DNA of 64,000 nucleotides, from assembly GCA_035651635.1 (NCBI GenBank), contig DASRFK010000152.1, positions 19,505 through 83,504 on the forward strand, given 5' to 3'. Below are positions 1,065-63,340 of this stretch, in pieces (position 1 is the stretch's first letter; the number at the start of each line of letters is the position of its first letter). The notes beneath the pieces are model-generated. The model had not been told where the DNA came from, did not search any database, and saw nothing but the letters and a program-made list of their open reading frames with translations. The DNA comes from Verrucomicrobiia bacterium. Lineage in GTDB: Bacteria; Verrucomicrobiota; Verrucomicrobiia; Limisphaerales; UBA8199. The position numbers were made by a program, and so were the translations under genes.

Positions 1065-1697
1065 TCAGAGACGAAGCAATCCCCGGCGGTTTGCCACGGC
1101 GATTGCTTCGGTGCGGCTCAAAACATTTAACTTCTTGAATACCGCCTGGACGTGGCTTTTCACCGTTACCTCAGAAATATCGAGTGCTGCGCCAATGAGT
1201 TTGTTTGGCTTCCCTTCCGCAAGCAGTTTCAAAACCTCGCTCTCACGCGGCGAGAGTTCTTCCCCCGGAAGTCGTTCAGCAAGTTTTGCGGCGATGGCGG
1301 CCGGAACGAATGTCCGACCGGCATGAACTTCACGAATGCACTGGAATAATTCTTCGCGCCTTACATCTTTTAGGAGATACGACTTTGCGCCAGCTCGCAT
1401 TCCGCGATAAATGTCCTCGTCGCCGTCAAATGTGGTAAGAACAATAACTCGGGCGTTTGGTTCGGCAGCGCGGATTTCGTAAATGGCATTCACGCCGTCC
1501 AGTTCCGGCATCCGCAAATCCATCAGCGTAACATCCGGCCTGTGTTTTTTCCAAAGTTCAACCGCCTTACGGCCGTCACCGGTTTCGGCCACCACGTCCA
1601 TATCTTTCTCTTGTTTGATGATTGCAACCAAGCCATCACGAACGACCGTATGATCGTCGGCGACTAAAACACGGATCGCTTTTTTTGCTCTATTCAA
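1065..1697 (-). CDS. NarL/FixJ-family response regulator (receiver + LuxR-type HTH)
   Basis: 210 aa. Receiver motifs VLVADDH and DVTLMDLRMPELDG. C-terminal GerE/LuxR HTH LSPRESEVLKLLAEGKPNKLIGAALDISEVTVKSHV. Overlaps the upstream kinase gene by 8 nt. Confidence 0.9.
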   Translation of the reverse strand: MNRAKKAIRVLVADDHTVVRDGLVAIIKQEKDMDVVAETGDGRKAVELWKKHRPDVTLMDLRMPELDGVNAIYEIRAAEPNARVIVLTTFDGDEDIYRGMRAGAKSYLLKDVRREELFQCIREVHAGRTFVPAAIAAKLAERLPGEELSPRESEVLKLLAEGKPNKLIGAALDISEVTVKSHVQAVFKKLNVLSRTEAIAVANRRGLLRL

Positions 1698-4593: not shown

Positions 4594-4743
4594 TTCGAGT
4601 GACCGAGCGAAACTGAATGGAGAATCGCGCTGCAGCCATAAAAAAAGCAAGCGCCTTTATCCAAGAACCAATTACCAACCCAATTTTCAGTTGAAACGAC
4701 ATCCAACATGCGGAGTCAGTTTCGCTGATTAGGGCCGTGATAA

Positions 4744-5186
4744 GCGCGAATTAAAACGTAGAGGGCATGGAATCGAGGAACATGTAGAGCACTGCAATTT
4801 TGCCATCGTGAACGATGATTACATCCAAGCCAGTGTAGTCGGGTGCCTCGCCGCGCGGGCCCGAACCCCAGGCGAGGCGACCGGCGGCATTCTGGAGAGC
4901 CTGAGGCTGGTCGTGGGCAAGAAACCAAATGGGAAATGTCAGATCATTTCGTCTTCGGTTTCGAAACTAGGAAGACTCGCATGCTTGCGAGCTTTCCGTT
5001 TTCGATCGTGAAGATAGCGTCCTGTCGGAGGGATGGATCGCTGAGGTATTCATAATTCTCCCTGAACCGCACCACTTGGTACGCCGGAGGCGAATAAGAA
5101 TGTTCGCTTGAGCTTGTCATGTCCTGAGCCATCACTTGTGTTGCCAATGACATGAAAAGCACAAAGAAGCCTGTCGACAGCTTCAT
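4744..5186 (-). pseudogene. patch of gene fragments: alginate-export-type porin N-terminus followed by NTF2/SnoaL-like C-terminal pieces
   Basis: ORF 4944..5186 has a signal peptide plus YQVVRFRENYEYLSDPSLRQD, matching YKMVRFDEDYSCLTNPANRSD of the porin at 38712..40115. It then switches to AIFTIENGKLASMRVF. A second start-less frame (4744..~4940) reads ..PDYTGLDVIIVHDGKIAVLYMFLDS, which is typical of an NTF2-like C-terminus. Confidence 0.35.
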
Positions 5187-5687
5187 TGGCTTTTAGTGTT
5201 CTAGCCTAGTCGCCGACGAAGCCTTTGTTGAGGCATCGTCGGCGATACTCTTTTATTTGGTGAGTTCCGGCCGACCGATAGCATGCGCGAAGGGTCGGGC
5301 TGAGGCTTCGCAGCCTCGGTAGTTCCACCTTGTATAACCCAACTGGAAATAATCGACCCTCAACCGAAGAGTTCTGGTCTTGGCCGCAAGGATTTACGAA
5401 CACAGCCTGGGTCGCTTCCTCGGCGTCGGGTGGCCGGTTGCCGTCGGGTCGAGTGCCGGAGGTCATAGCTAGTTTGGTTCGTAATGTGAGGGCAGCTGCC
5501 AACACCTTTGCTCACAGCGTTCAGGTGGTTTCAGACGCGAAACATGATTCAATATGAAACCCAATTCACACCCTTGCCGACTGGACGTTCTTTCAGAAAA
5601 TGTCCGGCGAAGAAATGGGCATGGCCCGCCCTCTCCGTGAAATGGAGCGTTATACTAGACTGCAACATGGCCTGAGCTGGCCATGTG

Positions 5688-6344
5688 CTAGTGCTTCTGT
5701 CCGCCAGAAGTGAGGAGCTGCAATTCCCACGCGAGGCTGGTACCGGTTGAACCGCCGTGCACCAAACTGATCTCGGCCACGGCCCCCACCGTCGCTTCCC
5801 GGGCCCAATCACGTTGCCACTCGCTCATGACACCCATCCAAGTGAGGGGCACTGCGCCAGCCTGGACGAGGCGCTGAATTGCACGTTCGTGAGCTTCGAC
5901 GCTGACACCGCCTGATGCGTCCGTAACAACATAAACGTCGTAGCCGTCGCCCAGCGCATGGATCGCCGGAAATGCGAGACAAATCTCCGTCCACAGCGCA
6001 GCGAAAACAATTTTCTTGCGGCCAGTCTTTTTCACAAGATCGACCACGCGTGAATCCTCCCAGGTATTGAGCGTCGTTCGATCAATCGGCACCTGATCGG
6101 GGAACACGGCTTGAAGCGCCTGCGGAAGGTTGCCGCCACGATCCTTGACGACGGTAGTGAGGATCGTGGGCACCTTAAACGCTTTCGCCGCCTTCGCGAG
6201 TCCGATGGTGTTGTTGAGAATCATTGTCGGATCCATGTTTCGCGTGTTGGCGAACTGGAACGGCTGGTGGTCGATCAAGATGAGGACGGAATTCTCTGGA
6301 GTGAGCAGCGCGTCGAGACCAACTTTGCTTTCTTTTGTATTCAT
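5688..6344 (-). CDS. isochorismatase-family hydrolase
   Basis: 218 aa. VLILIDHQPFQF, KKIVFAALWTEICLAFPAIHALGDGYDVYVVTDASGG (conserved Cys). Confidence 0.85.
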   Translation of the reverse strand: MNTKESKVGLDALLTPENSVLILIDHQPFQFANTRNMDPTMILNNTIGLAKAAKAFKVPTILTTVVKDRGGNLPQALQAVFPDQVPIDRTTLNTWEDSRVVDLVKKTGRKKIVFAALWTEICLAFPAIHALGDGYDVYVVTDASGGVSVEAHERAIQRLVQAGAVPLTWMGVMSEWQRDWAREATVGAVAEISLVHGGSTGTSLAWELQLLTSGGQKH

Positions 6345-6409
6345 GAATAGAATTTTGGTTCTTCCTGGGTGAATTTGATCAGGCGATGATGATTCGAAGC
6401 TACGTTTTT

Positions 6410-6868
6410 TTAGAACATTCCGTTTGGATTAGCGCGGGGGATGTTCGGGCCGATTAACGGCGCTGAGTTCTTCGGGTCGCCAACCACTTGCAGCGTGTCC
6501 CAATGCTCGATGGCCTTGCCTTCTGCATCCATTTTGTAGATGTCAACTCCCGCGATACCCGTATCGTTCGGATCATCGTTGAATAGATTCAGAAAATTCA
6601 CGTGCGCCCATACATAGTCGCCGACAGCAATGATGCGATGGACCACAACGCGGGCACGAGGTCGGCTACTGGTAATCTGGGCGAAAAATTTCCCCAGCGC
6701 GTCTGAACCGTCCGCAATAAGCGGGTTGTGCTGGATATAGCCTGGGCTGATGAATTTGCCGACGGATTCCTCAGACTTTTTCTGATTGATCACCAGATCG
6801 TAGAAGCCAAGGACATTGTTCTTGTTGCGAATGGCGCGACTATCGTTGCTATCGATTATTTCAATCAT
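6410..6868 (-). CDS. NTF2-fold SnoaL-like protein (COG4922-type)
   Basis: 152 aa. NKNNVLGFYDLVINQKK..YIQHNP..VVHRIIAVGDYVWAHVNF..GVDIYKMDAEGKAIEHWD. Confidence 0.75.
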   Translation of the reverse strand: MIEIIDSNDSRAIRNKNNVLGFYDLVINQKKSEESVGKFISPGYIQHNPLIADGSDALGKFFAQITSSRPRARVVVHRIIAVGDYVWAHVNFLNLFNDDPNDTGIAGVDIYKMDAEGKAIEHWDTLQVVGDPKNSAPLIGPNIPRANPNGMF

Positions 6869-6885
6869 GACTGAATCCCATTGTT

Positions 6886-7749
6886 TTATTTAAGACCGAC
6901 GAGTTGGAGGCGAATCGAGTCCAATTCGGCATCAGATTTTTCACGGACGAGTTTGAGAATTTCTTCAGAGTCTTGACCCACCGTTGCCCGCGTTGGCGCA
7001 GGCGTTTGTTCAGCTAGATCTATCACCTTGCTGGCGGCGGAGGCTGAGTCAAGACCGCTGTTCTGCATGCCATTGAGAGCGGATGTGAATGACTTAAAAG
7101 ATTGTCCATACAGCTCACGTTGTTCGGGCGTCATTCCAGAGGCGACTCGTGTGAGGGCTGCGGCTGTTTTCTCGGGGCCCCCGGTTTTCATATTGCCCGC
7201 CAGTGCAACCACTACGTCGATGCCGAACTGTTTCAATTCAGCTCGGTAAACAGTTGCAAACACCTCCATCGCGGCCTTCGATGCGCCAGATGGTCCGTTG
7301 AATGGGAGCGGCAAACTGGCTGTCCACGTGCTGATCTGCACGATGCGTCCACGTGCCTTGCGAAGTGCTGGCAAGAACGCGTTAATGACTGACATGGCGC
7401 CGAAGACGTTGACCTCAAATTCGCGCCGGATAGCGGCAAGCGGCAAGATTTCAATCGGCCCTGGGGTGAGAATGCCAGCATTGCTGATGAGAAGGTCGAG
7501 GCCGTCTTCACCCAGAATATCCGACAAGCCGCGCGCCCAGACTTGGACGTTCTTTTCATCAGTAATGTCGCAAATACTCAACGCGACTTTCCCGCCGGAC
7601 GCCTGCCTAAGATCGGCTATCTCACCGTTCGCTATCGCGGTGCCGAAAACCCGATAACCTTTTGCGGCCAGGCCGAGCGCAATGTCCCTACCAAGACCGC
7701 TGCCGGCGCCGGTGATTACCGCTGATCTTTGTTTTTTCGAGCTCCTCAT
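6886..7749 (-). CDS. short-chain dehydrogenase/reductase (SDR)
   Basis: 287 aa. TGAGSGLGRDIAL glycine motif, NAGI, and an S..Y...K-type region GPSGASKAAMEVF. Confidence 0.85.
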   Translation of the reverse strand: MRSSKKQRSAVITGAGSGLGRDIALGLAAKGYRVFGTAIANGEIADLRQASGGKVALSICDITDEKNVQVWARGLSDILGEDGLDLLISNAGILTPGPIEILPLAAIRREFEVNVFGAMSVINAFLPALRKARGRIVQISTWTASLPLPFNGPSGASKAAMEVFATVYRAELKQFGIDVVVALAGNMKTGGPEKTAAALTRVASGMTPEQRELYGQSFKSFTSALNGMQNSGLDSASAASKVIDLAEQTPAPTRATVGQDSEEILKLVREKSDAELDSIRLQLVGLK

Positions 7750-7874
7750 AAATCAGTTTAATTGTTTCAAGGTTTTGTTGGAGTTGCAGATCGCCAACTC
7801 TCCATCCGTCAATTGACACATACGAAAATATCCCTGGCGTAAGAAACTGCCCAATGCTTTATTTTTTACCTCGT

Positions 7875-7891
7875 TCATACTTTTGGTATGA
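7875..7891. promoter_or_regulatory. LysR-type operator palindrome TCATAC-N5-GTATGA
   Basis: Perfect 6-5-6 inverted repeat, 15 nt upstream of the LysR start at 7906, in the divergent intergenic region. A near-identical site lies at 13898..13914 next to the paralogous LysR. Confidence 0.55.
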
Positions 7892-7905
7892 GCTACCTTT
7901 GCGCT

Positions 7906-8805
7906 ATGGAACTTCGCCACCTGCGCTATTTCATCGCCGTTGCAGCGCACGGTTCTTTCAATCGTGCGGCGGAGGTTCTGCACCTGACCCAGCCAGCGCT
8001 CAGTCGCCAGGTGAAGGACCTCGAAGAAGAACTCGGTGTGTCGCTTCTCGTGCGCGGCCAAAACACGGTGAAGCTCACTGAATCAGGCCATCTATTTTGT
8101 GAGGAAGCGCGCGAAGTGATCGCCCGTGCGAATGAGGCCGTTCAACGAGTGCGGGGCGAAGCGCGAAACGAGACGCTACGTTTAGGTTACGCCCCCTCCA
8201 TCATTGCCGGTATCATGTCCGGCGTTTTGGAAAGATTTCTATCGACCACTCCGCGTGTGCGCATCGAGTTGATGGATCTTTCTTCAAGGGAAATTAACGA
8301 ATTGGCTGACGAAGGACGGCTCGACTTGGTAATCAGCCCCGGCATTTCAATAACGAAGGGAATTTCAGAATTCCAATGGACCGAGTTGCACCGCTTGCAG
8401 CCTGTTTTGATCATGCCTGTGACGCACCCGCTTGCAAAGTTAAAGCGAATTCCCCCTATGCGCTTGCGCGATCTTCCCCTCATCGGTCTGGCGAGGGGCA
8501 ATTATCCCGAATACGTGCCGCACGTGCGCGGATTACTTAAATCCTTCGGTGTTTCGCCGCGCTTCGTTTCGCTTGTGAATGATGGCCTCTCAACCTTGTT
8601 CACGGAATTGGAGGCGCACCGTGCAGCGGCAATTTTAACCGAAGGCATCATCAGTATCATGCCACGGACCCTCGTTACCCGACCATTTGCGCCGGTGTTG
8701 CACAGCACTGCAGTGATGATCGGCATTTCGGCGCTACGCCCCAACCGACACGCCGAAACCTTTTCGCGAATGCTGCTCGAAGAAGCGCGGCGCCGGCAAA
8801 AGTGA
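7906..8805 (+). CDS. LysR-family transcriptional regulator
   Basis: Starts MELRHLRYFIAVAAHGSFNRAAEVLHLTQPALSRQVKDLEEELG (the ORF track starts at 7888). Divergent from the SDR/SnoaL/isochorismatase operon. Confidence 0.9.
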   Translation: MELRHLRYFIAVAAHGSFNRAAEVLHLTQPALSRQVKDLEEELGVSLLVRGQNTVKLTESGHLFCEEAREVIARANEAVQRVRGEARNETLRLGYAPSIIAGIMSGVLERFLSTTPRVRIELMDLSSREINELADEGRLDLVISPGISITKGISEFQWTELHRLQPVLIMPVTHPLAKLKRIPPMRLRDLPLIGLARGNYPEYVPHVRGLLKSFGVSPRFVSLVNDGLSTLFTELEAHRAAAILTEGIISIMPRTLVTRPFAPVLHSTAVMIGISALRPNRHAETFSRMLLEEARRRQK

Positions 8806-9091
8806 AACGTGAATGCGAGTCCTGGGTCCGGTTGTTTCAGAAGTCGTGGTAAGACTAAGGCCGGCACCGTGGCTTCCATAATCACCTCCCACTCCGTGGA
8901 GGATATGAAGCTGAAGAAGGCCGATCTAATATTCGTCATGATCAAAGCCACAGGCCCCTCAATACAAAAGTTCCGAGGTCAGGGCCATTAGGCCGAGCTA
9001 TCAAAAGGCTCCACGGTAACTGCTTCCAAACCGTTTACGTGAGTGATCAACTCGACCAATCGCTCGCCGATAACTTGGATCAACTCTCGGG

Positions 9092-10534
9092 TTAGCCGAT
9101 TACCGCTTTGGGTTCAAGGTACTCCTGCAGCCCGAAGATCCCGCCTTCCCGACCGATCCCCGACTGTTTGAACCCACCGAAGGGAGCAAACGGATCGTGG
9201 CTTACTGTGTTGATCAGGACGCGGCCGGCAGCGAGTTTTCGCGCGACCCGGTAGGCCCTTTCAGGGTCTGCCGAGCTTACGTAGGCGATAAGGCCGAATT
9301 CGGTGTCATTGGCGATTTCAATGGCCTCGGCTTCGGTCTTGTACGTCAGTATCGACAAGACGGGGCCGAAGATTTCTTCCTTCGCGATACGCATGTCGCG
9401 GGTGACTTTTGCGAACACGGTGGGCTTGATGAAATTCCCCCGCTCAAGTCCTTGGGGATGACCTTCCCCGCCGATGACGAGCTCCGCACCTTCCTCGACC
9501 CCAGACTTGATGTACTCCTGCACGCGCTGGTACTGCTTTGTGCTGGCCAATGGGCCGAGGGTGACGTCCTTATCCTTTGGATCGCCTATTTTGATTTTTT
9601 CGACGGCCGCCTTGGCCAATCGCTTCACTTCCTCGAGGCGGTCTTCCGGCACAATCAGACGCGAAGCCGCAATGCAGGCCTGCCCGTTATTCAGATAACA
9701 GGCGTTGATGGCCATCGGGATCGCCGTTGAGAGATCGGCGTCGTCCAGGATGATGTTAGGCGACTTGCCTCCGAGCTCAAGCGTGAAGCGTTTCATTGTG
9801 TCCAGTGAGTTCTTGGCGACCAGTTTTCCGATCTGCGTCGAACCGGTGAAAGCGATTTTCTGAATGTCGGGGCTTTTCGTTAACTCCGTCCCGACGACTT
9901 CGCCAAGGCCCGTCACGACATTGATAACGCCGGGAGGCAACCCGGCTTCATGAAAGGCGTCCATCAACACTTCCGTTTGCATCGCACTCATCTCGCTGGG
10001 CTTGATGACGACCGTGCATCCGGCAGCGATTGCCGGTGCCACTTTGATCGCGATCGAGCCGGCGCTCGAATTCCATGGCGTAAATATGCCCACCACGCCG
10101 GCCGGCTCCATCACGACCTTAGATGTGCCGACAGTCTTGACCAGGTCGAAATCCTCGAGGACCTTCTTGAAGTGCAGGAAAATGTTTGCCGCGAGGTTGT
10201 TGGAGCCCTTCGCACGGTCTTGCGGTGCGCCGTATTCCACCACCGTCGCCTCAACGAGTTGATCCATTCTCTTGGCCACGGCGTCGTGCAACCGCTGCAG
10301 GCAGTCCATCCGGTGTTCCTTGCTACTTTGCGAAAAGGCGTTGAAGGCCTCTTTCGCAGCAGCGATGGCTTTTCGGGTGTCGATTTCGTCTGCCATGGTG
10401 ACCTTGCCGATAATCTTGTTGTCGGTCGGGTTCACCAGATCGACGACCTGGGTTCCATGCGGTGTGACGAACTGGCCATTGATATAGGCGCGATCAAATG
10501 CCTTTACTGGAGTCGCGGTTTCATGTGTTTTCAT
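9092..10534 (-). CDS. NAD(P)-dependent aldehyde dehydrogenase
   Basis: 480 aa. FTGST.IG, ELGGKSP, catalytic NNGQACIAASR, and C-terminal EYLEPK. Confidence 0.92.
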   Translation of the reverse strand: MKTHETATPVKAFDRAYINGQFVTPHGTQVVDLVNPTDNKIIGKVTMADEIDTRKAIAAAKEAFNAFSQSSKEHRMDCLQRLHDAVAKRMDQLVEATVVEYGAPQDRAKGSNNLAANIFLHFKKVLEDFDLVKTVGTSKVVMEPAGVVGIFTPWNSSAGSIAIKVAPAIAAGCTVVIKPSEMSAMQTEVLMDAFHEAGLPPGVINVVTGLGEVVGTELTKSPDIQKIAFTGSTQIGKLVAKNSLDTMKRFTLELGGKSPNIILDDADLSTAIPMAINACYLNNGQACIAASRLIVPEDRLEEVKRLAKAAVEKIKIGDPKDKDVTLGPLASTKQYQRVQEYIKSGVEEGAELVIGGEGHPQGLERGNFIKPTVFAKVTRDMRIAKEEIFGPVLSILTYKTEAEAIEIANDTEFGLIAYVSSADPERAYRVARKLAAGRVLINTVSHDPFAPFGGFKQSGIGREGGIFGLQEYLEPKAVIG

Positions 10535-10680
10535 TTGTGTGACCTTTCACGAGGTTTCGGCTTTACTAAGGTCGCTGTGTCTTTCAGCGCCGCAGCTCAC
10601 GATTTCAGTATGGCTCAAAAGCTGGTCGGCGTAACGAGCAAAAGCCGCCACTGCTTCTGCAGAACATGCGAAACGGTTTT

Positions 10681-10832
10681 TCGTGTCTAAATGCCGCCTT
10701 GGCACCGCAACCGGTGACATGTGCCGAAACGCCGTTCTGGTATCTTGGTTAAGTTCTCAGGTGTAGAACGTGTGTCAGAAGAGCCGGATTAAACCGGCTT
10801 TTTTGTTGTACCAATGCAGCCGGCATCAATAC
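10681..10832 (+). repeat. R element copy 1 (about 150 nt, ends in an intrinsic terminator); sRNA or mobile-element candidate
   Basis: Aligns with 20569..20722. The ~93-nt core from GGTGACATG to GTTGTACC has about 5 mismatches. The last ~56 nt (GTTCTCAGGTGTAGAACGTGTGTCAGAAGAGCCGGATTAAACCGGCTTTTTTGTTGTACC) are identical. Same orientation in both copies. Confidence 0.7.
10782..10806 (+). terminator. rho-independent terminator-like hairpin inside R copy 1
   Basis: AGCCGG-ATTAAA-CCGGCT followed by TTTTTT. It is preceded by a second small hairpin, GTTCT-caggtgt-AGAAC. Confidence 0.5.
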
Positions 10833-11187
10833 TGTCCGGCTCAAAGGGCGATGGCCCGACGGGCAAAAGCGCACGTTACTGAAGTGCCTCGCAGCCATAC
10901 CGTCTACGTTTCACAACCAACAGAGGTTGCAGAGTTCATCCGGCAGGCAACCGATGCTTTATTTGAACTGCAATTGGGCCACCGAGACTTGTCCAGCGAC
11001 CGGCGAAGGTTTTGAAGTGCTTCGCCGGTGATTTTCATTTGTTGAGTGATGTGCGAATGCGTCGCTTTAACCTGAATAGTGAGAAAACCACAGCGCTGGT
11101 CCTTTCCCCCGGTATCGATACCTTGAACGACAACTCTCAAGATCCGAGTTTCAGACGCAGTTTCGCGACGCTCTGTGCGAACCTCGA

Positions 11188-12078
11188 TCAGCAAGCTTTC
11201 GTTCGCCTGGCTGAGTCAATAAACGAGTCCGTAGCTGATGATCGGGGTTTCTTGCAATACGCGATGCCGACCACAAGAGGTGGTGGTGCAGGTTGCAATG
11301 GGCGAATTTTCAACCGCGGGCTTCCAAGACCATTAAGCGGCTGTGCAATCACAGCAACTCCTCTGCCCGATTCGACGGCCGCGATGAGGCTGGTGATGCT
11401 GTCGTGTTCCTCGACGATCTGCGGCGAGCGGTTCAGTTGCCCAAACAAGTCGTCGATCCACGCCCGATGCTCTGGATAGTCCGCAACCGTAAACGCGACG
11501 AGATGCTCCTTGGCGACTTGCTCCAGCCCAACTCTATGCGCTCGCGCCAGCGGGTGAGCCGGATGAACGGCCACGCAAACCTGCTGACACTGCAATCCCT
11601 CGAAAACTAATCCCGCCAGAGCCTTCAGCGACACCTGCACCAGCAGAGCCACCTGGAGGTTTCCTTCTCTCAGTCCATCCAACATTTCACGGGTTGATAA
11701 ATCGTGAAGCTGTACGCGCACGCCAGGGTTGGACTCCCGGAAGTACCTCAGCGCACGCGGCAGGAGTTCGACCGTCAATGATGGCGCGTAACCGACGTGG
11801 ATTTCGGCGCGCTTTCCTGCGGCGACGGCCTTGGCCATTTGCACGGCATCCTGCACACCCTGCAAGGCTATGCGAGCTTCAGTGAGCAAAACGCGGCCGG
11901 CTTCGGTGAGCCGCACGGCTTTTGCGCCGCGGTCGAAAAGCACGATACCAAGTTCATCTTCCAAATCCCGAATTTGCCTGCTTAACGTCGGCTGTGACAA
12001 GTGGAGCTTCACCGCCGCGCGCGTGACGTTCTGTTCCTCGGCGACGGCCACGAAGTATCGCAGATGACGGAGTTCCAT
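11188..12078 (-). CDS. LysR-family transcriptional regulator
   Basis: Likely start MELRHLRYFVAVAEEQNVTRAAVKLHLSQPTLSRQIRDLEDELG at 12078 (the ORF track extends to 12198). Confidence 0.9.
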   Translation of the reverse strand: MELRHLRYFVAVAEEQNVTRAAVKLHLSQPTLSRQIRDLEDELGIVLFDRGAKAVRLTEAGRVLLTEARIALQGVQDAVQMAKAVAAGKRAEIHVGYAPSLTVELLPRALRYFRESNPGVRVQLHDLSTREMLDGLREGNLQVALLVQVSLKALAGLVFEGLQCQQVCVAVHPAHPLARAHRVGLEQVAKEHLVAFTVADYPEHRAWIDDLFGQLNRSPQIVEEHDSITSLIAAVESGRGVAVIAQPLNGLGSPRLKIRPLQPAPPPLVVGIAYCKKPRSSATDSFIDSARRTKAC

Positions 12079-12089
12079 TTCCTCCAAGT

Positions 12090-12104
12090 ATGCCCGATGG
12101 GCAT
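12090..12104. promoter_or_regulatory. LysR-type operator palindrome ATGCC-N5-GGCAT
   Basis: Perfect 5-5-5 inverted repeat, 12 nt upstream of the LysR start. The same half-sites occur at 16063..16077. Confidence 0.5.
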
Positions 12105-12242
12105 GGTTAGCCAAGCAACAAGGTATTTCCGCCGCATCTGTGTTGCAGGTAGCGTAAGAGGCGACGACCGTTCCAATTCGAACGGCGTACAAAAGCATAA
12201 AAGCGATCTGCCAATACTGCGATAAACTAAAGGACCGAGTCT

Positions 12243-12872
12243 ATGGAATCCCAGAATACGAAACGATACCAGGAGCGACTTACGCCGGACAACGCCGCTC
12301 TAATTCTCGTCGACCATCAAGTTGGGCTGTTCACTGGAGTCAGAGATATCCCTGTAGCGGAGTTGAAGCATAATGTCGTCGCACTAGCGAAAGCGGCCAA
12401 AGTGTTGGGCGTTCCGACCATCGTGACCGCTACCTCGCCGGAGATGTGGGGTCCAACGATTCCGGAGCTGGCGGAGGCCTTGCCCGGGGTCCAGATCATT
12501 GCGCGAACGACGGTCAATGCATTTGATGAGCCCCGGTTTGCTAAAGCTGTGGAAACTGCCGGTCGCAAGAAGCTCGTTATCGCGGGTGTTTCAACCGAGG
12601 TGTGTTTGGCTCTTCCAGCCATCCATGCGACGGGAATGGGTTACGATGTGTATGGCGTGATTGACGCCTCCGGCACTTTCAGCGAAACCAAGCGCATTAC
12701 GGGGCTGCTGCGCATGGTTCAAGCGGGCGTGATCGTCATCGACTATTGCACCGTCGCCGTAGAAATGCTCAAGGATAACTCGAGTCCAAAGGCCGGCGAT
12801 CTGTATGCGGCCCTCGATATGCCTTTTGCCGGTCTGGTCGGACAATTAGCCGGAGCATTCGCCAAGCATTGA
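12243..12872 (+). CDS. isochorismatase-family hydrolase
   Basis: 209 aa. ALILVDHQVGLF, KKLVIAGVSTEVCLALPAIHATGMGYDVYGVIDASG. Confidence 0.85.
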   Translation: MESQNTKRYQERLTPDNAALILVDHQVGLFTGVRDIPVAELKHNVVALAKAAKVLGVPTIVTATSPEMWGPTIPELAEALPGVQIIARTTVNAFDEPRFAKAVETAGRKKLVIAGVSTEVCLALPAIHATGMGYDVYGVIDASGTFSETKRITGLLRMVQAGVIVIDYCTVAVEMLKDNSSPKAGDLYAALDMPFAGLVGQLAGAFAKH

Positions 12873-17644: not shown

Positions 17645-18211
17645 ATGAATGCATTAAGAATCGCGGTCATCATCGGAAGCACACGGCCTGGGCGCAACGG
17701 CGAGGCCGTGGCCAAATGGGTTTATGAAATCGCCCAAAAGCGTGCCGACGCAGAGTTCGAACTCGTGGACATCAAAGATTTCAATCTCCCGCTTCTCGAC
17801 GAGCCAATGCCGCCATCGATGGGACAATACAGTAAGCCTCACACCAAAGCATGGGCCGCCAGGATCGGCTCTTTCGATGGCTACGTCTTCGTTGCGCCCG
17901 AGTACAATCATGGCATCTCCGGTGCACTCAAGAACGCGATCGATTTTCTTTTCGCTGAATGGAACAACAAGGCCGCCGGCTTCGTCAGCTATGGCGGTGC
18001 CGGCGGCGCGCGTGCCGTCGAGCAGTTGCGGCTGGTACTGGCCGAGGTTCAAATCGCCACGGTGCGCAATCAGGTCTTGCTCTCCATGTTTACCGACTTT
18101 GAAAACTTCAGCGTCTTCAAGCCGCTTGCCCGGCACGAGAAGTCGGTCAATGAAATGTTCGACCAGGTCATTGCTTGGGGCGGCGCGTTAAAAGCGCTGC
18201 GGGAGAAATGA
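17645..18211 (+). CDS. NADPH-dependent FMN reductase
   Basis: MNALRIAVIIGSTRPGRNG..PEYNHGISGALKNAIDFL. By eye roughly 85% identical to the paralog at 59926..60486. Confidence 0.85.
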   Translation: MNALRIAVIIGSTRPGRNGEAVAKWVYEIAQKRADAEFELVDIKDFNLPLLDEPMPPSMGQYSKPHTKAWAARIGSFDGYVFVAPEYNHGISGALKNAIDFLFAEWNNKAAGFVSYGGAGGARAVEQLRLVLAEVQIATVRNQVLLSMFTDFENFSVFKPLARHEKSVNEMFDQVIAWGGALKALREK

Positions 18212-18245
18212 GCAAGGCCTGAGAAGAAACTCACCCCTTAACAAA

Positions 18246-42117: not shown

Positions 42118-42873
42118 ATGAGCACTTCATCTAATGGTATTGATCAGCCACCTGAAATGCGTGATAACGATTTTTTCACAGACATCCCGAGTGGTCACAA
42201 GTTGCCCTTGGGTTGGGTAGAGTGCGCTTGGCAGCCCGAGGTCACCACCAAACAGCAAGCGCTCTGCAACGAACCAGGCCGCCTCGTGGCGACAAACGGA
42301 GGAACCCCTGCGATGGCCTACAAGAAAGGATTTACTCGTCGGCGTGGAACCATGAAGGCGATTATTTTCTACGACGATGTCGCCTCCGCAGCCAGAGCGG
42401 TCGTTATACTACGCCGTTGCATGTCTTTGGCCAGAGGCGGTGCCCGATGGGATATCAAGCCATGGTGTGTCGGGGTTCTGAAATTGCCCTTGGCCGCCGA
42501 CGAGGCGCTTATTGAATCGATTGATGCCGACGTAATCGTGTTTGCAGCTCTTCGTGCGCCTACACTCCCCAAATCTCTCAAGGAATGGCTGCAATGGTGG
42601 AATCTTCGCCGTCAGTCAAGGGAACCGGCCGTTGTGATTACTCGCGCATATTATGATGCCAGGCGCAGCGGATTTGATCATGAATTGCTGAGTTTTGCCG
42701 CACAAAATGAGCTGGACTTGATCGTTGAAGCGAACCCGCCAGTTGGGGATCGTCTGGCCGATGAGCTCGTCCAACCCAAAATGTCGCTTCCGCAGGCCGC
42801 CATGGATGAAGCAACGATGGGTGCGGCCGTTACGCCCCATTATTCATATCGAAATTGGGGCATTAACGAGTGA
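42118..42873 (+). CDS. hypothetical protein
   Basis: ORF with GAGGGGA 9 nt before the ATG at 42118. Alternative start MKAIIFYDDVASAARAV at 42352. I recognise no domain. Confidence 0.5.
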   Translation: MSTSSNGIDQPPEMRDNDFFTDIPSGHKLPLGWVECAWQPEVTTKQQALCNEPGRLVATNGGTPAMAYKKGFTRRRGTMKAIIFYDDVASAARAVVILRRCMSLARGGARWDIKPWCVGVLKLPLAADEALIESIDADVIVFAALRAPTLPKSLKEWLQWWNLRRQSREPAVVITRAYYDARRSGFDHELLSFAAQNELDLIVEANPPVGDRLADELVQPKMSLPQAAMDEATMGAAVTPHYSYRNWGINE

Positions 42874-44534: not shown

Positions 44535-46619
44535 ATGGACAAGGATACTTCATTTAAACACAAAGTGGCCCTTGTGACGAGTGGCACTTGCGGAATTGGC
44601 GCAGCCGCAGCCCTGGCGCTGGGCCGGGTGGGAGCGAAAGTGGTTGTAGCCGGCCGGGGCGAAAGCGAGGGCCAGGCGGTGCTGGATGCCATCAAAAAGT
44701 CCGGCGGCGAAGGGACGTTAGTCAAAAAGGATGTCGGCCGTGAGGTCGATGTGAAGGCGATGGTGGACCGGACCGTGGCGGCGTTCAGTCGTTTCGATTT
44801 TGGCTTTAAGCAAGGAATCCGCGTGAACGCCGTGGCCTTCGGCACGGTAGAAATGGGGGTTCTCATCTGGAATTTCGAAGGTGAGATTGTCGAGGCCAAT
44901 GATTCGTTTCTGAAAATGGTGCAATACGACCGTGAAGACCTCGTCAAAGGTCGCGTGCGTTGGACAGATCTGACACCTGCCGAATGGCGTGATCGCGATG
45001 CACGCGCCTTAAACGACTTAAAGAAGGCGGGCACCGCCCAGCCGTATGAGAAAGAGTTCTTGGGGAAACAAGGCAACCGGGTACCGGTGCTAGTCGGTGG
45101 CGCATTGTTCCAGAAAGGAGGAAACGAGGGTGTAGCTTTCGTGTTCGATCTCACAGAACAAAAGTGCGCCGAGAAGGCCTTGCGGCGAAGCGAAGCCTAT
45201 TTGGCTGAATCACAAAAATTGAGCCACACGGGAAGCTGTGGCTGGAATGTTTCCAACGGAGAACTTTTCTGGTCGGAGGAAACTTACCGAATTGTGGGTA
45301 TCGCTCCAACCACCAAGCCGACGCTCGAGTTGGTATGGCAAATCGTCCATCCAGAAGACCGCGACATAGTGCAGCGGGCAATAGATGACGCCGCGAGAAT
45401 CAGTGCAGACATAGATTCAGAGCACCGTATTGTGATGTCTGATGGGTCATTTAAGGATGTCCACCTTGTCATGCACGCAGTCAAGAACCAAAACGGCAAT
45501 CTCGAGTACATCGGTGCGCTGACGGACGTGACCGCGACGAAAAATGCGTTCCGGCAGATTGAAGGATTGAAAGATCAGCTCCAAAGAGAGAATGTGGCGC
45601 TCCGCGAAGAGGTTGATGCAGCGTCCATGTTCGAGGAAATTATCGGCACTTCGGCTCCGTTAAGGGCGGTGTTGTCTCGCATCTCCAAGGTCGCCCCCAC
45701 CGATTCCACCGTTTTGATCACTGGCGAGACCGGCACGGGTAAGGAGCTAATCGCCCGGGCCATCCATAAACGGTCCGCGCGTGCGGGGCAGGCCTTTGTC
45801 AGCGTGAATTGCGCAGCTATACCACCTTCTCTAATCCATTCGGAATTGTTCGGCCACGAAAGGGGTGCTTTCACCGGAGCAATGCAACGGAAACTTGGCC
45901 GCTTCGAACTGGCGCGGGGAGGCACCTTTTTTCTCGACGAGGTCGGTGAGCTCACAGCGGAGACGCAAGTCGCGTTATTACGGGTATTGCAGGAAAATGA
46001 ATTCGAGCGGGTAGGCGGAACACAGCCTATCCGAGCGGACGTGCGGCTGATCGCAGCGACAAATCGCGACCTCAAGGAGGCAATTGCGTCCGGCGCATTT
46101 CGCAGCGACTTGTTCTACCGGCTGAACGTTTTTCCGATCGAAGTGCCGCCCCTGCGCGAGCGCAAAGAAGATATCCCGATTTTAACCGAGTATTTTATTC
46201 ACCGTTTCGCCGGCCGCATGGGGAAGAGACTCTCGGGTATCGGCCGGAAGACATTGGAGTTATTTCAATCCTACCGTTGGCCCGGCAACATTAGGGAACT
46301 GCAAAACGTCGTGGAGAGATCCGTCATCGTTTGCGAGACCGAAACGTTCTCAGTAGATGAAAGCTGGCTCGCGCGACAAGGCCCGCCGACCGAAACCACT
46401 GTCCGTCCGCTGTCTCAGAGGCTTGCGACAGACGAAAGGGCATTGATCGAAGGCGCCATGGCTGAAACACACGGCAGAGTTTCCGGCCCAGCCGGCGCGG
46501 CGGTAAAGCTCGGCATACCAGCCTCCACACTGGAATCGAAAATCCGAGCGCTCAGAATTAACAAACACCAGTTCAAGCTCGCGGCATATCCCGGACCGCT
46601 TTCATATCCTCTCACCTGA
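44535..46619 (+). CDS. sigma-54-dependent enhancer-binding protein (2 PAS + AAA+ + Fis-type HTH) with an in-frame SDR remnant at the N-terminus
   Basis: AAA+ core VLITGETGTGKELIARAIH, GAFTGA (GAFTGA loop), FLDEVGEL, RVGG, RLIAATNRDL, FRSDLFYRLNVFPI, WPGNIRELQN. C-terminal HTH AAVKLGIPASTLESKIRAL. Residues 1-106 look like an SDR with its catalytic core deleted. Alternative start at 44853. Confidence 0.9.
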   Translation: MDKDTSFKHKVALVTSGTCGIGAAAALALGRVGAKVVVAGRGESEGQAVLDAIKKSGGEGTLVKKDVGREVDVKAMVDRTVAAFSRFDFGFKQGIRVNAVAFGTVEMGVLIWNFEGEIVEANDSFLKMVQYDREDLVKGRVRWTDLTPAEWRDRDARALNDLKKAGTAQPYEKEFLGKQGNRVPVLVGGALFQKGGNEGVAFVFDLTEQKCAEKALRRSEAYLAESQKLSHTGSCGWNVSNGELFWSEETYRIVGIAPTTKPTLELVWQIVHPEDRDIVQRAIDDAARISADIDSEHRIVMSDGSFKDVHLVMHAVKNQNGNLEYIGALTDVTATKNAFRQIEGLKDQLQRENVALREEVDAASMFEEIIGTSAPLRAVLSRISKVAPTDSTVLITGETGTGKELIARAIHKRSARAGQAFVSVNCAAIPPSLIHSELFGHERGAFTGAMQRKLGRFELARGGTFFLDEVGELTAETQVALLRVLQENEFERVGGTQPIRADVRLIAATNRDLKEAIASGAFRSDLFYRLNVFPIEVPPLRERKEDIPILTEYFIHRFAGRMGKRLSGIGRKTLELFQSYRWPGNIRELQNVVERSVIVCETETFSVDESWLARQGPPTETTVRPLSQRLATDERALIEGAMAETHGRVSGPAGAAVKLGIPASTLESKIRALRINKHQFKLAAYPGPLSYPLT

Positions 46620-59925: not shown

Positions 59926-60486
59926 TCATTTCTCGCGCATCGTTTTCAACGCGCCGCCCCAAGCGATGACCTGATCAAATACCTCGTTAACCGATTTCTC
60001 GTGCTGTGGAGCCGGCTTGAAGACGCTGAAATTTTCAAAGTCGGTAAACATGGAGAGCAGCACTTGGTTGCGCACCGTAGCAATTCGGACCTCGGCCAAC
60101 ACCAACCGTAGCTGCTCGACCCCGCGTGCTCCGCCGGCCCCGCCGTAGCTGATGAAGCCAGCCGCCTTGTCGTTCCACTCGCGGAATAGAAAATCAATCG
60201 CATTCTTGAGCGCGCCAGAGATGCCATGGTTATACTCGGGCGTGACGAAGACATAGCCGTCAAAAGAGCCGATCTTAGCGGCCCATACCTTGGTGTGCGG
60301 TTTGGAATACTGGCCCATTATGGATGGAATTGGCTCGTCCAGCAGGGGCAGGTTGTAGTCTTTGATGTCCACCAGTTCGAACTCGGCGTCGGTGCGCTTT
60401 TTGGCGATTTCGTGGACCCACCTGGCCACGGCTTCCCCGTTGCGACCAGGGCGTGTACTTCCGATGATTATGGCAATTTTAAGCAT
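59926..60486 (-). CDS. NADPH-dependent FMN reductase (paralog of 17645..18211)
   Basis: MLKIAIIIGSTRPGRNG..PEYNHGISGALKNAIDFL. GGAGG RBS upstream. Confidence 0.85.
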   Translation of the reverse strand: MLKIAIIIGSTRPGRNGEAVARWVHEIAKKRTDAEFELVDIKDYNLPLLDEPIPSIMGQYSKPHTKVWAAKIGSFDGYVFVTPEYNHGISGALKNAIDFLFREWNDKAAGFISYGGAGGARGVEQLRLVLAEVRIATVRNQVLLSMFTDFENFSVFKPAPQHEKSVNEVFDQVIAWGGALKTMREK

Positions 60487-60603
60487 ATATTCCTCCTATC
60501 AGGATGTTAATTCCGCGTTGATCACCACGAACGAACTCGGACAAGAGCCAGCTTGCAATGAAACAACGAGGATTGACGCATAGTCTTTGCTCGTAACGGC
60601 GTT

Positions 60604-61413
60604 TCAAAAGAAGAACGTTATACCCAGCAACCCTGTTACGCCGTTGAGACCGAGGTTCGGGTTGCTGATTCCAGCGCAGGACCAATGGACATAACGCGCC
60701 TCCAGGCTGATGGCCATGTTGTCTTTCACGAACCATTGGACTCCCGCTCCCGCCTGGAGGTTGAACTCGAACGTCCCGCTCAAATCAGGAGGCCCGATGC
60801 TCGTGGCTGTCACACCAGCTCCGCCGTCAACAAATGGGATCCACCGTGTTCCCGTTGCAAAGTCGTAGCGCAGGTGCGGCGTCAGACCCACGAGCCATTC
60901 CCTGCTGGGGGAGAATTGGGCGCCGGTGAATAATTCGAGCCGGAATTCCAGGTTGCCCCGATACCAATGGCCCTCACCCCAAACATGGCTCAACATGTGA
61001 CCATACGAGAGAGTGATGAGCGCCAAGTCGTGAGCTTGCACGCTGCCAAAGCTTGAAAAGCCATAGGTGGCCCCGGCGCTTAGACCAAACGAATGCGTCG
61101 TGGACCGAAAGCCTTCGCCAATGCTATGCTCCCATATGCTTGCCTTCTCGGATCCAAGATTGAACTCCTCCGTCGATACACTGTTGGTGAGCGGTAGCAT
61201 TGGGTGTGCGCGGGCCTCCAACGGGGCCGCCGCCCCGGCGCACAAAACCGAGTCGTTGAAGAAGTTTATTAATCCCGAATCGGCACTTGTGAGAGCCGTA
61301 CTTGCCTGCTGTTGTTCCGTCCGAAGGTCACCGCCGGCTATGGCACTCAGTGATGGATTGACCGCGGCTAGCAAGAGGGCGGCTGATATTGTTCTACAAA
61401 TTGTTTGTTTCAC
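60604..61413 (-). CDS. PagL-like acyloxyacyl hydrolase / outer-membrane beta-barrel protein carrying a borrowed N-terminus
   Basis: GTG start. C-terminal two thirds have alternating beta-strand pattern, H.S motif VHWSCAG, and C-terminal GITFFF. The first ~53 aa are near-identical to the SYLF gene at 61976..62506. Confidence 0.5.
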   Translation of the reverse strand: MKQTICRTISAALLLAAVNPSLSAIAGGDLRTEQQQASTALTSADSGLINFFNDSVLCAGAAAPLEARAHPMLPLTNSVSTEEFNLGSEKASIWEHSIGEGFRSTTHSFGLSAGATYGFSSFGSVQAHDLALITLSYGHMLSHVWGEGHWYRGNLEFRLELFTGAQFSPSREWLVGLTPHLRYDFATGTRWIPFVDGGAGVTATSIGPPDLSGTFEFNLQAGAGVQWFVKDNMAISLEARYVHWSCAGISNPNLGLNGVTGLLGITFFF

Positions 61414-61560
61414 ACTCTGGTTTTCCAGTTTTTTGGTTTAATTACATCCGTGAACACATTCTGTTTGAACTATTCCGTCCACTGTTGTTTTGAACGATTC
61501 GTCTTTTTGCTTCTTTAAGCCTTTGTGAATTTCCCGACGCCTCTGGGTCTAGTTCGCTGA

Positions 61561-61687
61561 TGCTAGACCCGTGCCAAAGCGGAGCTGCAGGGAATCAGAT
61601 GGATCAGCCTGAAAAATCCAATGCCTGAGAAGCGCTTCGTGAGTCAACTTGCGATACTTCGAGGATTCGCGACGTTTCGCAAAAAAG
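61561..61687 (-). promoter_or_regulatory. type I sigma-54 promoter cassette
   Basis: Minus-strand TGGCACgggtcTAGCA at 61561..61576. Boxes (minus strand) TTTTTGCGAAACGTCGCGAATCCTCGAAG at 61657..61686. Confidence 0.75.
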
Positions 61688-61975
61688 TTATCGAACGAGC
61701 CTCATCTCGGCCATACCGTTCCCGGTGAGACACGAATGACTCGGCCAGCAATGGCCAGAGTCGATTGAGTTTTAAGGGAAGCGCGGCCAAGGGCTCTTCC
61801 CAGGCCGCGCTCCATTGCGCGAGTCTGTTATCCCGGCGTCCTTGGCGACAGGCAACGGATAAGGGATCTTGAACTCAACTGTCTCCTCGAGAAATTGGGC
61901 ACCTCGTTGGAACGAAAAAGTCTCACAAACTCTTGGACATCAATTTCGCGTGTCCTGCGAGCGACCGGAAGCAGA

Positions 61976-62506
61976 TCAGTCTAACGGCTTATATTTGAAC
62001 TTTTGGCCACCGATTGTCGCCTGGACCATCAGCCCTGTTCTTGGAAGGGTGAACACCGTCACACCGCTCTTATACCTGGTATTTGCCGCTGCACCGTCCG
62101 CAGCGGCAACGGCACTCACTTCCGCGCTCATTTCAAAATTGCTTTGTTTGAAGTTTGACAACGCCTCGGGGGTCTCGAAGAAAATAACTTCGTAGAAGGA
62201 TTGGCCTCCGGCCTGCGGTCCAACGTTGACCTCTGTGAGTGTGGCTTCCCCTATAGGCTTTCCTTTTTCGTAGAGGACCCCTTTCCCACGCTCACTAATA
62301 AGGCCTCCCTTGCCGACGCTAGGGAATACGACGAAACCAACCGAGCCGTTGAAGAAGTTTGTTAATCCCGAATCGGCACTCGTGAGAGCCTTAATTGCCC
62401 GCTCTGCTTCCATCCGAAGATCGTCGCCGGCTATCGCGGTCAGTGCGGGATTGACCGCAGCTAGCAAGAGGGCGGCTGATACTGTGCTGCGAATTGTTTG
62501 TTTCAT
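61976..62506 (-). CDS. SYLF-domain (Ysc84-like, COG2930-type) secreted protein
   Basis: Signal peptide. GFVVFPSVGKGGLI..GKGVLYEKGKPIG..VGPQAGGQSFYEVIFFETPEALSNFK..NFEMSAEVSAVAA..GGQKFKYKPL. Confidence 0.6.
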   Translation of the reverse strand: MKQTIRSTVSAALLLAAVNPALTAIAGDDLRMEAERAIKALTSADSGLTNFFNGSVGFVVFPSVGKGGLISERGKGVLYEKGKPIGEATLTEVNVGPQAGGQSFYEVIFFETPEALSNFKQSNFEMSAEVSAVAAADGAAANTRYKSGVTVFTLPRTGLMVQATIGGQKFKYKPLD

Positions 62507-62650
62507 ACCTCGTTTTCAAGTTTTTGGCTTTAGTTACATCAGTCAACACATGTTTTCTAAACTGTTTCGTCGATTATTGTTTTGCACCATTCGTCTCTTC
62601 CCTTCTGAGGCTTTGTGAATTTACCAACGCCTCTGGGTTTAGTTCGCTGA

Positions 62651-62778
62651 TGCTAGAGTTGTGCCAAGTGGAGTTGCAGAAAATCTGCCATATCAGCCTG
62701 AAAAAAACCAAATGCCTGAGACGAGCTTCGTAAGTTAACTTGCGAAGCTTCGAGAATTCGCGACGTTTCGCGAAAAAG
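62651..62778 (-). promoter_or_regulatory. type I sigma-54 promoter cassette
   Basis: Minus-strand TGGCACaactcTAGCA at 62651..62666. Boxes (minus strand) CTTTTTCGCGAAACGTCGCGAATTCTCGAAG at 62748..62778. Confidence 0.75.
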
Positions 62779-62923
62779 TCCATCAAGCTAAATGCTGACA
62801 CAGGCGCATCAAATGAATGATTCGCCTGAAGACGAAACCATTCCTGAAGGTTTGTCCCCCGAGGGTTTGTGTGGCACTTATAATTGTAGTTTGTCGAAGC
62901 ACGGAATCACGCCGAAATGCAAA

Positions 62924-63340
62924 ATGTATATGAAGAGCAATCCTTTAAAGAAGGGTGAAGTAATGATCAACTCCGCCGGCATTGGCACAGTAACCAGGAA
63001 GATGGTGCGGAAGCGTGCCGCGGAACTGGCCAGACTCGCTGGTCGTTCGGCTCGGGAAGTGTCTAAATCCGATTTGGCGACGGCCAGAAGGGAATTAACC
63101 GGCGAGGCAGAATTGGACCCTAAGCAAGCCGCCCTGGAAGCCGCACCAGAATCTGAACGCTGGGATCCGGTGCCTGGATCACAAGGCCGCAAAGTTCCGG
63201 TCAGTCCTGGCGAGGATGAGGACGACGAGGGGCGAAGCGACAATGAAAGGCTCGTTGAAGAAGGTGTCGAGGAGGCCGAGCTCGATCAGATGGATCAAGC
63301 CACCCGGCCCGCGGCCACGAAGGGCAAAGCAAAACACTGA
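62924..63340 (+). CDS. hypothetical acidic protein
   Basis: MYMKSNPLKKGEVMINSAGIGTVTRKMVRKRAAELARLAGRSAREVSKSDLATARRELTGE.., then an Asp/Glu-rich tail. The start is uncertain (ORF open from 62792; other ATGs at 62930 and 62963). Confidence 0.4.
   Translation: MYMKSNPLKKGEVMINSAGIGTVTRKMVRKRAAELARLAGRSAREVSKSDLATARRELTGEAELDPKQAALEAAPESERWDPVPGSQGRKVPVSPGEDEDDEGRSDNERLVEEGVEEAELDQMDQATRPAATKGKAKH

Follow-up and report, generated by a model that had tools for sequence, protein, structure and literature searches.

A probable chimera of a PagL-like barrel gene with the 5' module of its SYLF neighbor in a soil Verrucomicrobiae genome

Within a 64-kb stretch of a soil Verrucomicrobiae genome (hereafter the window), two adjacent minus-strand genes, one for a SYLF (Ysc84-related) protein and one for a PagL-like outer-membrane barrel, begin with copies of the same sequence. 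The PagL-like gene is very probably a lineage-specific chimera, in which a copy of the 5' module of its SYLF neighbor has taken the place of its own promoter region and of the first half of its own signal peptide. With the same high confidence, we describe the captured module as consisting of enhancer boxes, a sigma-54-type promoter, a leader of ~135 nt, a 26-residue signal peptide, and 30 residues of the mature protein. The hybrid is a natural capture of a promoter and a signal peptide, not an unprecedented one, and close relatives hold trimmed versions of it. Feature coordinates are collected in Table 1.

Results

A 443-bp repeat precedes both genes

The copy of the repeat in front of the SYLF gene is called R and the one fused to the PagL-like gene R'. 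Local alignment of 61246-61688 with 62339-62779 gave 447 columns with 369 identities (82.5%) and 10 gap columns, the 443-bp copies differing at 17% of sites, and BLASTN within the window returned the repeat with an E-value of 6e-124. By segment, identity was 83% in the enhancer region, 82% in the -24/-12 region, 81% in the leader, and 86% in both codons 1-26 and codons 27-56. The blocks that a preliminary description of this DNA had delimited by eye (61255..61700 and 62340..62790, ~85% identical) are close to these limits, and the resemblance clearly exceeds that of two signal peptides, being unbroken through enhancer, promoter, leader, and coding sequence. The shared coding part recognized there is real but measures 56 codons rather than about 53. 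As also described, the products start nearly alike and then become unrelated; 41 of the 56 N-terminal residues are common to both (73%, tblastn), and nothing is common after codon 56.

The repeat begins immediately after the spacer that trails the SYLF gene, which fits the junction of a tandem duplication. Two contigs with SYLF orthologs (L007 and L008) match R at ~90% over the promoter module and at 93% over the end of the leader and the coding sequence. In unrooted three-taxon site counts, unique changes numbered 37 in R', 17 in R, and 16 in L007, R' thus having the longest branch, and 15 of the 37 chimera-only changes fall between the upstream activating region of R' and its -24 element. 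Such counts leave the tree without a root and do not order the duplication in time against the L007 lineage. An Rfam E-value scan of 60500-63000 gave no match; the shared leader is therefore none of the known riboswitches or small RNAs. About 61 nt of the leader (61431-61491 and 62524-62588) are present in both window copies and in two further related contigs (L011 and L012) and are missing from L007/L008.

The shared N-terminus is native to the SYLF family

The direction of transfer follows from the homologs of the two proteins. Among the SYLF homologs with 60-94% identity, query coverage was 93-100% in nearly all of the 120 listed, and all ten that were read individually carry the start M(K/N/T)..(I)R......LL......LTA..G..L..EAE.AIK.L..ADS.LTN.F..S (MKQTIRN...SADSGLTN.FNGS type). 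Among the 120 best PagL-like homologs listed, which cover about 68-93% of the query, the shared N-terminus occurs only in the cluster at least 90% identical to the window protein; of the others, the 13 read individually and all 37 in a separate alignment (A1) have unrelated N-termini. The shared N-terminus is thus not a normal part of PagL-like proteins, and the proposal in the preliminary description that the PagL-like gene took its promoter module, signal peptide, and ~30 mature residues from its neighbor is upheld. These comparisons show transfer from the SYLF gene to the PagL-like gene. Reverse transfer was considered and is ruled out by the N-termini of the homologs of both.

Relatives do have PagL-like genes with their own N-terminus, for which a check had been suggested beforehand. 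The tblastn similarity of two such native proteins (P0003 and P0004) to the window ends at 61248 and 61245, which is the breakpoint; other native PagL-like proteins gave weak alignments reaching slightly further upstream. In A1, window residues 57-70 line up with the part of 37 native signal peptides that comprises the hydrophobic core and the A-x-A cleavage region, such as PLLEARAQQ in P0027, AAPAAVLEAGAQQ in P0004, and MLCTFVTASWNAKAQQ in P0003. The breakpoint therefore lies inside the recipient's signal peptide, of which the front half was replaced and the rear half is now internal.

The SYLF donor is intact

The SYLF product matched Pfam Ysc84/SYLF (PF04366) at residues 92-169 with 28.2 bits against a cut-off of 25.1 (E 2e-6), in agreement with the domain assignment made earlier, and it is identical to HZR18783.1, annotated 'YSC84-related protein'. 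It resembles the BPSL1445 family (NCBIfam NF049970; PDB 7OFN) and BefA (7RFQ), with matches over residues 29-170. Alignments began at residue 37 for 7OFN (E 1e-10), at residue 19 for BefA (E 8.5e-9), and at residue 29 for the NF049970 model, so most of the 30 residues after the signal peptide are part of the first portion of the SYLF fold; the grafted residues 27-56 lie largely inside this match. Together with the ten homologs that carry the segment, this supports the reading of the shared piece as the beginning of the SYLF domain. The product differs from BPSL1445-family lipoproteins in its score (58.9 bits against the equivalog cut-off of 200) and in having no lipobox; since its signal peptide has no cysteine (none in residues 1-30), it is not a lipoprotein. 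Unlike both comparison proteins, it is without two residues in a conserved Gly-rich loop. At residues ~66-72 (62290-62310), GGLISERGKG stands in place of GGLIIGGERGKG of the 178-residue orthologs, a two-residue deletion whose exact sequence recurs in several databases.

The hybrid retains an intact barrel behind a drifting graft

The preliminary assignment of the other product as a PagL-like barrel ending in GITFFF also holds. Pfam PagL (PF09411) matched residues 137-265 with 56.4 bits against a cut-off of 23 (E 4e-15), and the top Foldseek match of the barrel was PagL 2ERV, with a TM-score of 0.75 on the target. The AlphaFold2 (AF2) model has an eight-strand barrel at residues 107-268, mostly with a predicted local distance difference test (pLDDT) score above 90, and a mean below 55 over residues 1-89. 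The chimera retains every one of the 55 columns that are invariant in the family, including H243 and S245, which are invariant in 38 sequences, and the C-terminal GITFFF signal is intact. The barrel thus resembles PagL of Pseudomonas aeruginosa, a lipid A 3-O-deacylase (2ERV), in its Pfam match, its eight strands, and its His-x-Ser motif, vHwSCAG in the window aligning with iHySNAG of 2ERV, where the catalytic His and Ser are H126 and S128. It differs from 2ERV in having only 23% identity, in ~80 unstructured residues between the signal peptide and the first strand, of which ~44 are graft-derived, and in the position aligned to the catalytic Glu140, which is N257, an invariant Asn in this PagL-like family, near the alignment end where the register is uncertain. 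Lipid A deacylase activity is a candidate function of the hybrid.

The ratio of nonsynonymous to synonymous substitution rates (dN/dS) for the 56 grafted codons was 0.66 when they were compared with the SYLF gene of the window and 1.05 with that of L007, and 0.83-1.04 for codons 27-56 against the SYLF copies; these two SYLF orthologs compared with each other gave 0.17. In this small sample, the grafted mature piece appears to drift almost neutrally, as expected of a tail that no longer folds as SYLF. Cleavage of the signal peptide would be expected after AIA, judging from the n/h/c-region pattern and the A-x-A rule.

The hybrid and a trimmed form occur in other assemblies

Exact look-up found the identical 269-residue product on a 91-kb ENA/Logan contig, a 49-kb JGI contig, and an 88-kb contig of an NCBI Verrucomicrobiae metagenome-assembled genome. 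A 98%-identical hybrid with the same downstream genes (P0001) is encoded on a 2794-nt contig from JGI sample 3300050821 that begins only 212 nt upstream of the gene. A search of genome contigs with the chimera yielded one distant locus (L001, 54% identity). In metagenome DNA, a pattern search for the chimera-specific codons 2-10 found nothing, and one for the promoter core found only L012 and L013, the latter being the same contig as L008.

We refer to the arrangement in the window as Form A. Two cluster-mates of the window hybrid, P0245 (MKQTICRTISGALLLAAVNSALTKAHA followed by QPMLPLTN...) and P0243 (...KQTICRTISAALLLAAVNPALTEARA followed by QPIIALTN...), have a signal peptide of the SYLF type that runs straight into the native cleavage site and are called Form B. 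The contig of P0245 (L011) is orthologous to the window, 6071-12408 matching window 61217-54878 at 89.85% over 6.3 kb, and has the same promoter, leader, GTG start, signal peptide, and chimera-specific substitutions. What Form B lacks is 126 nt, in frame, comprising codons 24-65. No other evidence speaks as strongly for translation of the upstream frame, and against a start at Met72, as this gap, which leaves a textbook signal peptide. The A-to-B junction has only 1 nt of microhomology, on which ground slippage between direct repeats was rejected as the cause of the deletion. Form B is read as derived from Form A, because one deletion turns A into B, while the reverse would need an insertion of SYLF sequence together with 27 nt resembling the native signal peptide.

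On the P0243 contig, a SYLF gene (178 residues) is followed by Form B with the spacing seen in the window, as read from gene tables and protein sequences. On L011, no SYLF gene is present. L011 1293-1367 corresponds to window 62807-62733, the SYLF-side flank and enhancer, and over the enhancer is identical to R at 46 of 46 positions and to R' at 41 of 46. At sites informative between R and R', L011 is SYLF-type upstream of ~61510 (15 versus 5) and chimera-type downstream (26 versus 5; Fisher p = 3.7e-5). This pattern fits a recombination between the direct repeats that would have removed the SYLF gene, and retention of ancestral states could explain part of it.

L011 additionally carries a 4.4-kb IS66-family element (1368-5766) between the enhancer boxes and the sigma-54-type promoter of the hybrid, with TnpB_IS66, DruA, DDE_Tnp_IS66, and SEC-C genes, an 8-bp target duplication (AGTTAACT), and the ends GTAAGCGGTAAGC. 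The insertion probably uncouples the activator from the promoter. L012 (1021-1545) keeps the enhancer, promoter, and leader of R without the SYLF coding sequence, 62522 being followed directly by 61997, and continues into DNA matching window 33.5-36.2 kb at 95-98%. L007/L008, L011, and L012 have one upstream context, with a kinase-TPR gene, from which the window differs beyond about 62807. The locus is unusually plastic among close relatives.

Distant relatives have the native PagL-like gene as a second gene, directly behind and overlapped by an open reading frame (ORF) of 166-173 residues that has no Pfam or NCBIfam match. The window copy of this partner ORF is 18 kb from the PagL-like gene and is followed by a sigma-54 module of the class described below (class 1); the barrel gene had thus been separated from its usual partner.

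The promoters appear to belong to a sigma-54-type regulon

The preliminary description had placed a promoter and TCGCGA boxes in each block. Both are there; the promoters are of the sigma-54 type (GG-N10-GC), as a scan with the sigma-70 consensus found nothing resembling such a site ahead of either gene, and perfect boxes number one in the chimera copy and two in the SYLF copy. A pattern scan of the window gave six sites of the form TGGCA(C/T)-N3-TCTAGCA (61576, 62666, +43034, -41904, +46823, and +53774), with TTCGCGA or TCGCGA boxes within 160 nt upstream at all six. GG and GC doublets lie 10 nt apart in a TGGCAC-N5-TTGCW-like context. The -12 element at these sites reads TAGCA instead of TTGCA (TCTAGCA), which is unusual.

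Sigma-54 promoters of this kind usually come with activator-binding repeats ~70-150 nt upstream and a gene for an enhancer-binding protein; the boxes described and the gene at 44535..46619 correspond to these, and the TTCGCGA boxes may bind this candidate regulator, as its proximity suggests. Ahead of its first PAS domain, at residues 10-88, the enhancer-binding protein has a piece of a short-chain dehydrogenase truncated to profile positions 1-79 of 195 (Pfam adh_short), which may be a second chimeric N-terminus in the window.

From their sequences, the chimera and SYLF promoters appear to belong to a six-promoter sigma-54-type regulon beside this candidate activator. Genes downstream of the modules include those for a DUF2934 protein, an isochorismatase-family hydrolase, a three-subunit molybdenum hydroxylase, and an enoyl-CoA hydratase-like protein. 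The modules form two classes. Those of class 1 (SYLF, chimera, 43034, and 41904) are 56-77% identical over 250 nt and have a conserved CCCAGAGGCGTTGG box just past the promoter, and the two of class 2 (46823 and 53774) are 62% identical. The existence of two paralogous classes suggests that the regulon grew by copying whole promoter modules. More speculatively, the class-1 modules (boxes, -24/-12 elements, and the first ~50 transcribed bases) might be a copy-and-paste unit for recruiting genes, the PagL-like hybrid being a copy that overshot into coding sequence, and metagenomes might hold its whole life history in Form A, Form B, and donor loss by repeat recombination. We consider this idea possible, though rather doubtful as a whole; were it true, the hybrid would be a natural stepwise record of promoter and secretion-signal capture.

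Table 1 Features of the hybrid locus and related elements
Feature	Coordinates	Strand	Basis
Chimeric PagL-like outer-membrane barrel gene, 269 residues, GTG start	60604..61413	-	ORF; Pfam PagL; AF2; fold match
Chimera codons 1-26, SYLF-derived signal peptide MKQTICRTISAALLLAAVNPSLSAIA	61336..61413	-	alignment to SYLF N-termini
Chimera codons 27-56, first 30 mature SYLF residues, out of context	61246..61335	-	inside SYLF domain models; pLDDT below 55
Chimera codons 57-70, LCAGAAAPLEARA-H, remnant of native PagL-like signal peptide (rear half with cleavage site)	61204..61245	-	alignment A1
126 nt (codons 24-65) lacking, in frame, in Form B	61219..61344	-	alignment with L011; P0245, P0243
Intact SYLF (Ysc84-related) gene, 176 residues, ATG start, donor	61976..62506	-	Pfam PF04366
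Copy R (donor): enhancer boxes, sigma-54-type promoter, leader, first 56 SYLF codons	62339..62779	-	alignment; L007/L008 match
Copy R' (acquired): same elements, fused in frame to PagL-like gene	61246..61688	-	82.5% identity, E 6e-124
Sigma-54-type promoter of SYLF gene, TGGCACAACTCTAGCAT (GG-N10-GC)	62650..62666	-	pattern scan
Sigma-54-type promoter of chimera, TGGCACGGGTCTAGCAT (GG-N10-GC)	61560..61576	-	pattern scan
Upstream activating region of R, repeated TTCGCGAA-type boxes ~70-110 nt upstream of -24	62733..62779	-	conserved in L007, L008, L011, L012
Upstream activating region of R', partly degraded boxes TTTGCGAA, GTCGCGAA, TCCTCGAA	61642..61688	-	alignment
Candidate regulator, sigma-54 enhancer-binding protein (PAS, PAS, AAA+, HTH_8)	44535..46619	+	Pfam Sigma54_activat E 3.6e-71
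Partner ORF in the window	42355-42873	+	
Partner ORF in L005	1429-1929		
Partner ORF in L009	4190-4711		
Partner ORF in P0018	residues 1-125		

Discussion

Weighing the chimera against other explanations

Several points weigh against the chimera and the route proposed for it. When the spacer between the SYLF stop codon and R' (61689..61975, minus strand) was compared with all loci and with the window, neither the 5' end of a native PagL-like gene, nor the partner gene, nor a second SYLF copy proved to have left a relic in it; a route by duplication and then deletion is thus undocumented by intermediates. The GTG start, the relaxed dN/dS, and the partly degraded enhancer boxes of R' would also fit a decaying 5' region, and the dN/dS values rest on just 56 codons. 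In P0001, the C-terminus is frameshifted and has neither the His-x-Ser motif nor the last strands, which could reflect a pseudogene or a sequencing error. The public annotation of the window gene (HZR18782.1, 'acyloxyacyl hydrolase', beside HZR18783.1) has 198 residues and starts at Met72, and the 1-nt microhomology would allow Forms A and B to be independent fusions. Expression and function of the hybrid are also predictions.

Two competing accounts concern the start of the gene and the relation between Forms A and B. If the real gene started at Met72, the 71 upstream codons would be an untranslated pseudogene fragment or leader, and the barrel, leaderless for export, would probably be dying. 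HZR18782.1 and P0244 are both called from MLPLTN, the upstream start is a GTG, dN/dS of the upstream part is near 1, and the frameshift in P0001 would suit such decay. However, the 71 upstream codons have no stop, the barrel keeps all 55 invariant residues and the C-terminal FFF signal although the Met72 product has no signal peptide, and the exact 126-nt deletion in relatives leaves a signal peptide on the mature barrel (MKQTICRTISGALLLAAVNSALTKAHA followed by QP), which is expected only if the frame is translated. We therefore regard the Met72 account as improbable and the 269-residue reading from GTG 61413 as better supported; because the Met72 product has no signal peptide, the public annotation would describe an outer-membrane barrel lacking an export signal. 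It is likewise unlikely that Forms A and B are independent in-frame deletions, made in two lineages from a longer tandem intermediate with a second full SYLF copy before the native PagL-like gene. The R'-specific changes found in both forms (GTG start, ICRTIS) could have accumulated in such a redundant duplicate, and the short microhomology would be compatible with it, but this account requires two separate in-frame fusions, Form B is exactly Form A minus one contiguous block, and no contig with the longer intermediate was found in the searches.

The other two accounts concern the repeat itself. Gene conversion by the SYLF copy could have started in a paralogous class-1 module already at the PagL-like gene and run into the coding sequence, and the 56-77% identity of the four class-1 modules over 250 nt makes upstream homology for recombination plausible. 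Yet the native PagL-like gene of relatives sits behind the 166-173-residue ORF and is not preceded by such a module, an illegitimate join would still have been required where the tract ends downstream, and the repeat begins at the end of the post-SYLF spacer, as at a tandem-duplication junction; we give this account little weight. An assembly artifact, or chance or convergent similarity from shared regulation, has next to no probability in our judgment. Repeats can mislead assemblers, and the start of the P0001 contig 212 nt upstream of its gene may be an assembly break in the repeat. Against this, the 17% divergence of the copies and the uniqueness of the sequence at the junction make mis-assembly not credible, and the same 269-residue product occurs in the 91-kb, 88-kb, and 49-kb contigs from different sources. 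Chance similarity is countered by identity that continues through the non-coding leader with an E-value of 6e-124.

Proposed expression and history of the hybrid

On the chimera reading, the hybrid would be transcribed from its own copy of the sigma-54 promoter, possibly also by read-through from the SYLF gene, and would be controlled by the enhancer-binding activator that would also serve the SYLF gene and four or more further promoters of the window. Translation would start at GTG 61413, and the SYLF-derived signal peptide would direct Sec export and be cleaved after AIA26, with outer-membrane insertion through the C-terminal GITFFF signal. The eight-strand barrel would then carry a floppy N-terminal tail in the periplasm, with ~44 graft-derived residues, of which SYLF supplied 30 and the native signal peptide, now dead, the other 14. 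This tail is presumably dispensable because relatives removed 42 codons in frame while keeping the signal peptide and the barrel.

The copy arose either by simple cassette duplication or in several steps. In the history we propose, the SYLF unit 62779-61689 would have been duplicated in tandem, and a deletion would have joined the second copy, at its codon 56, to what remains of the PagL-like signal peptide, giving Form A as in the window. The 126-nt in-frame trim would have produced Form B with the SYLF gene retained (P0243), and recombination between the two repeats would have removed the SYLF gene later (L011).

Relation to known systems

The rnk-citT module of Cit+ E. coli, from the 2012 work of Blount et al., is reportedly a promoter capture with a chimeric join that arose in laboratory evolution. 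Tandem duplication that activates silent transferred genes is described in two reports (PMC6614815, PMC11111574). The window resembles these cases in that a partial duplication sets the promoter and 5' end of one gene before another, with the donor intact beside an in-frame hybrid that has its promoter and N-terminus. In contrast to them, the window hybrid is natural, old (~17% divergence between the copies), and fixed in its lineage, and it also transfers a secretion signal. A chimeric sigH of Staphylococcus aureus is formed by spontaneous tandem duplication as a reversible, low-frequency switch (at most 1e-5) (PMC3486894). The two cases are alike in a chromosomal duplication that yields an in-frame fusion protein and a new expression signal for a gene, and differ in that the window hybrid is stable, diverged, and trimmed further in relatives. 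Unlike the join points of Cit+ and sigH, no intact recipient copy is retained. Neither the window nor the spacer holds a second PagL-like copy or a 5' relic flanking the duplication, and the structure is therefore not a plain tandem-duplication join point. A literature search for SYLF in combination with PagL gave no relevant result.

Partial duplication with promoter capture is well documented in laboratory evolution as a route of gene birth and is rarely seen fixed in nature with intermediates. In the present case, related genomes still contain the donor, the raw and the trimmed hybrid, and a state with the donor lost, which makes the order of the steps testable. That a native signal peptide was halved and replaced indicates that secretion can be re-wired along with regulation. 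The public start at Met72 would be an annotation error. Common sigma-54 control of a lipid A-remodeling-type enzyme and a lipid-binding SYLF protein would predict co-regulated envelope functions.

Spacer and neighboring genes

A scan found no canonical minus-strand terminator between the SYLF and PagL-like genes. The spacer holds a GC-rich hairpin (GCGCGGCC at 61781-61788 and GGCCGCGC at 61803-61810). The element containing it (61778-61863) does not match the terminator pattern and is 77% identical over 87 nt to L004 9541-9626, ~1 kb downstream of the SYLF gene of L004. This match had been taken as a possible cox2 relic, an interpretation that was dropped, the matching segment being a GC-rich hairpin element inside a doubtful ORF extension. 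Beside the hybrid lies a flavin mononucleotide (FMN) reductase gene (59926-60486) with an apparent paralog at window 17649-18214, and L011 6800-7363 matches that second location at 82%, besides its syntenic copy.

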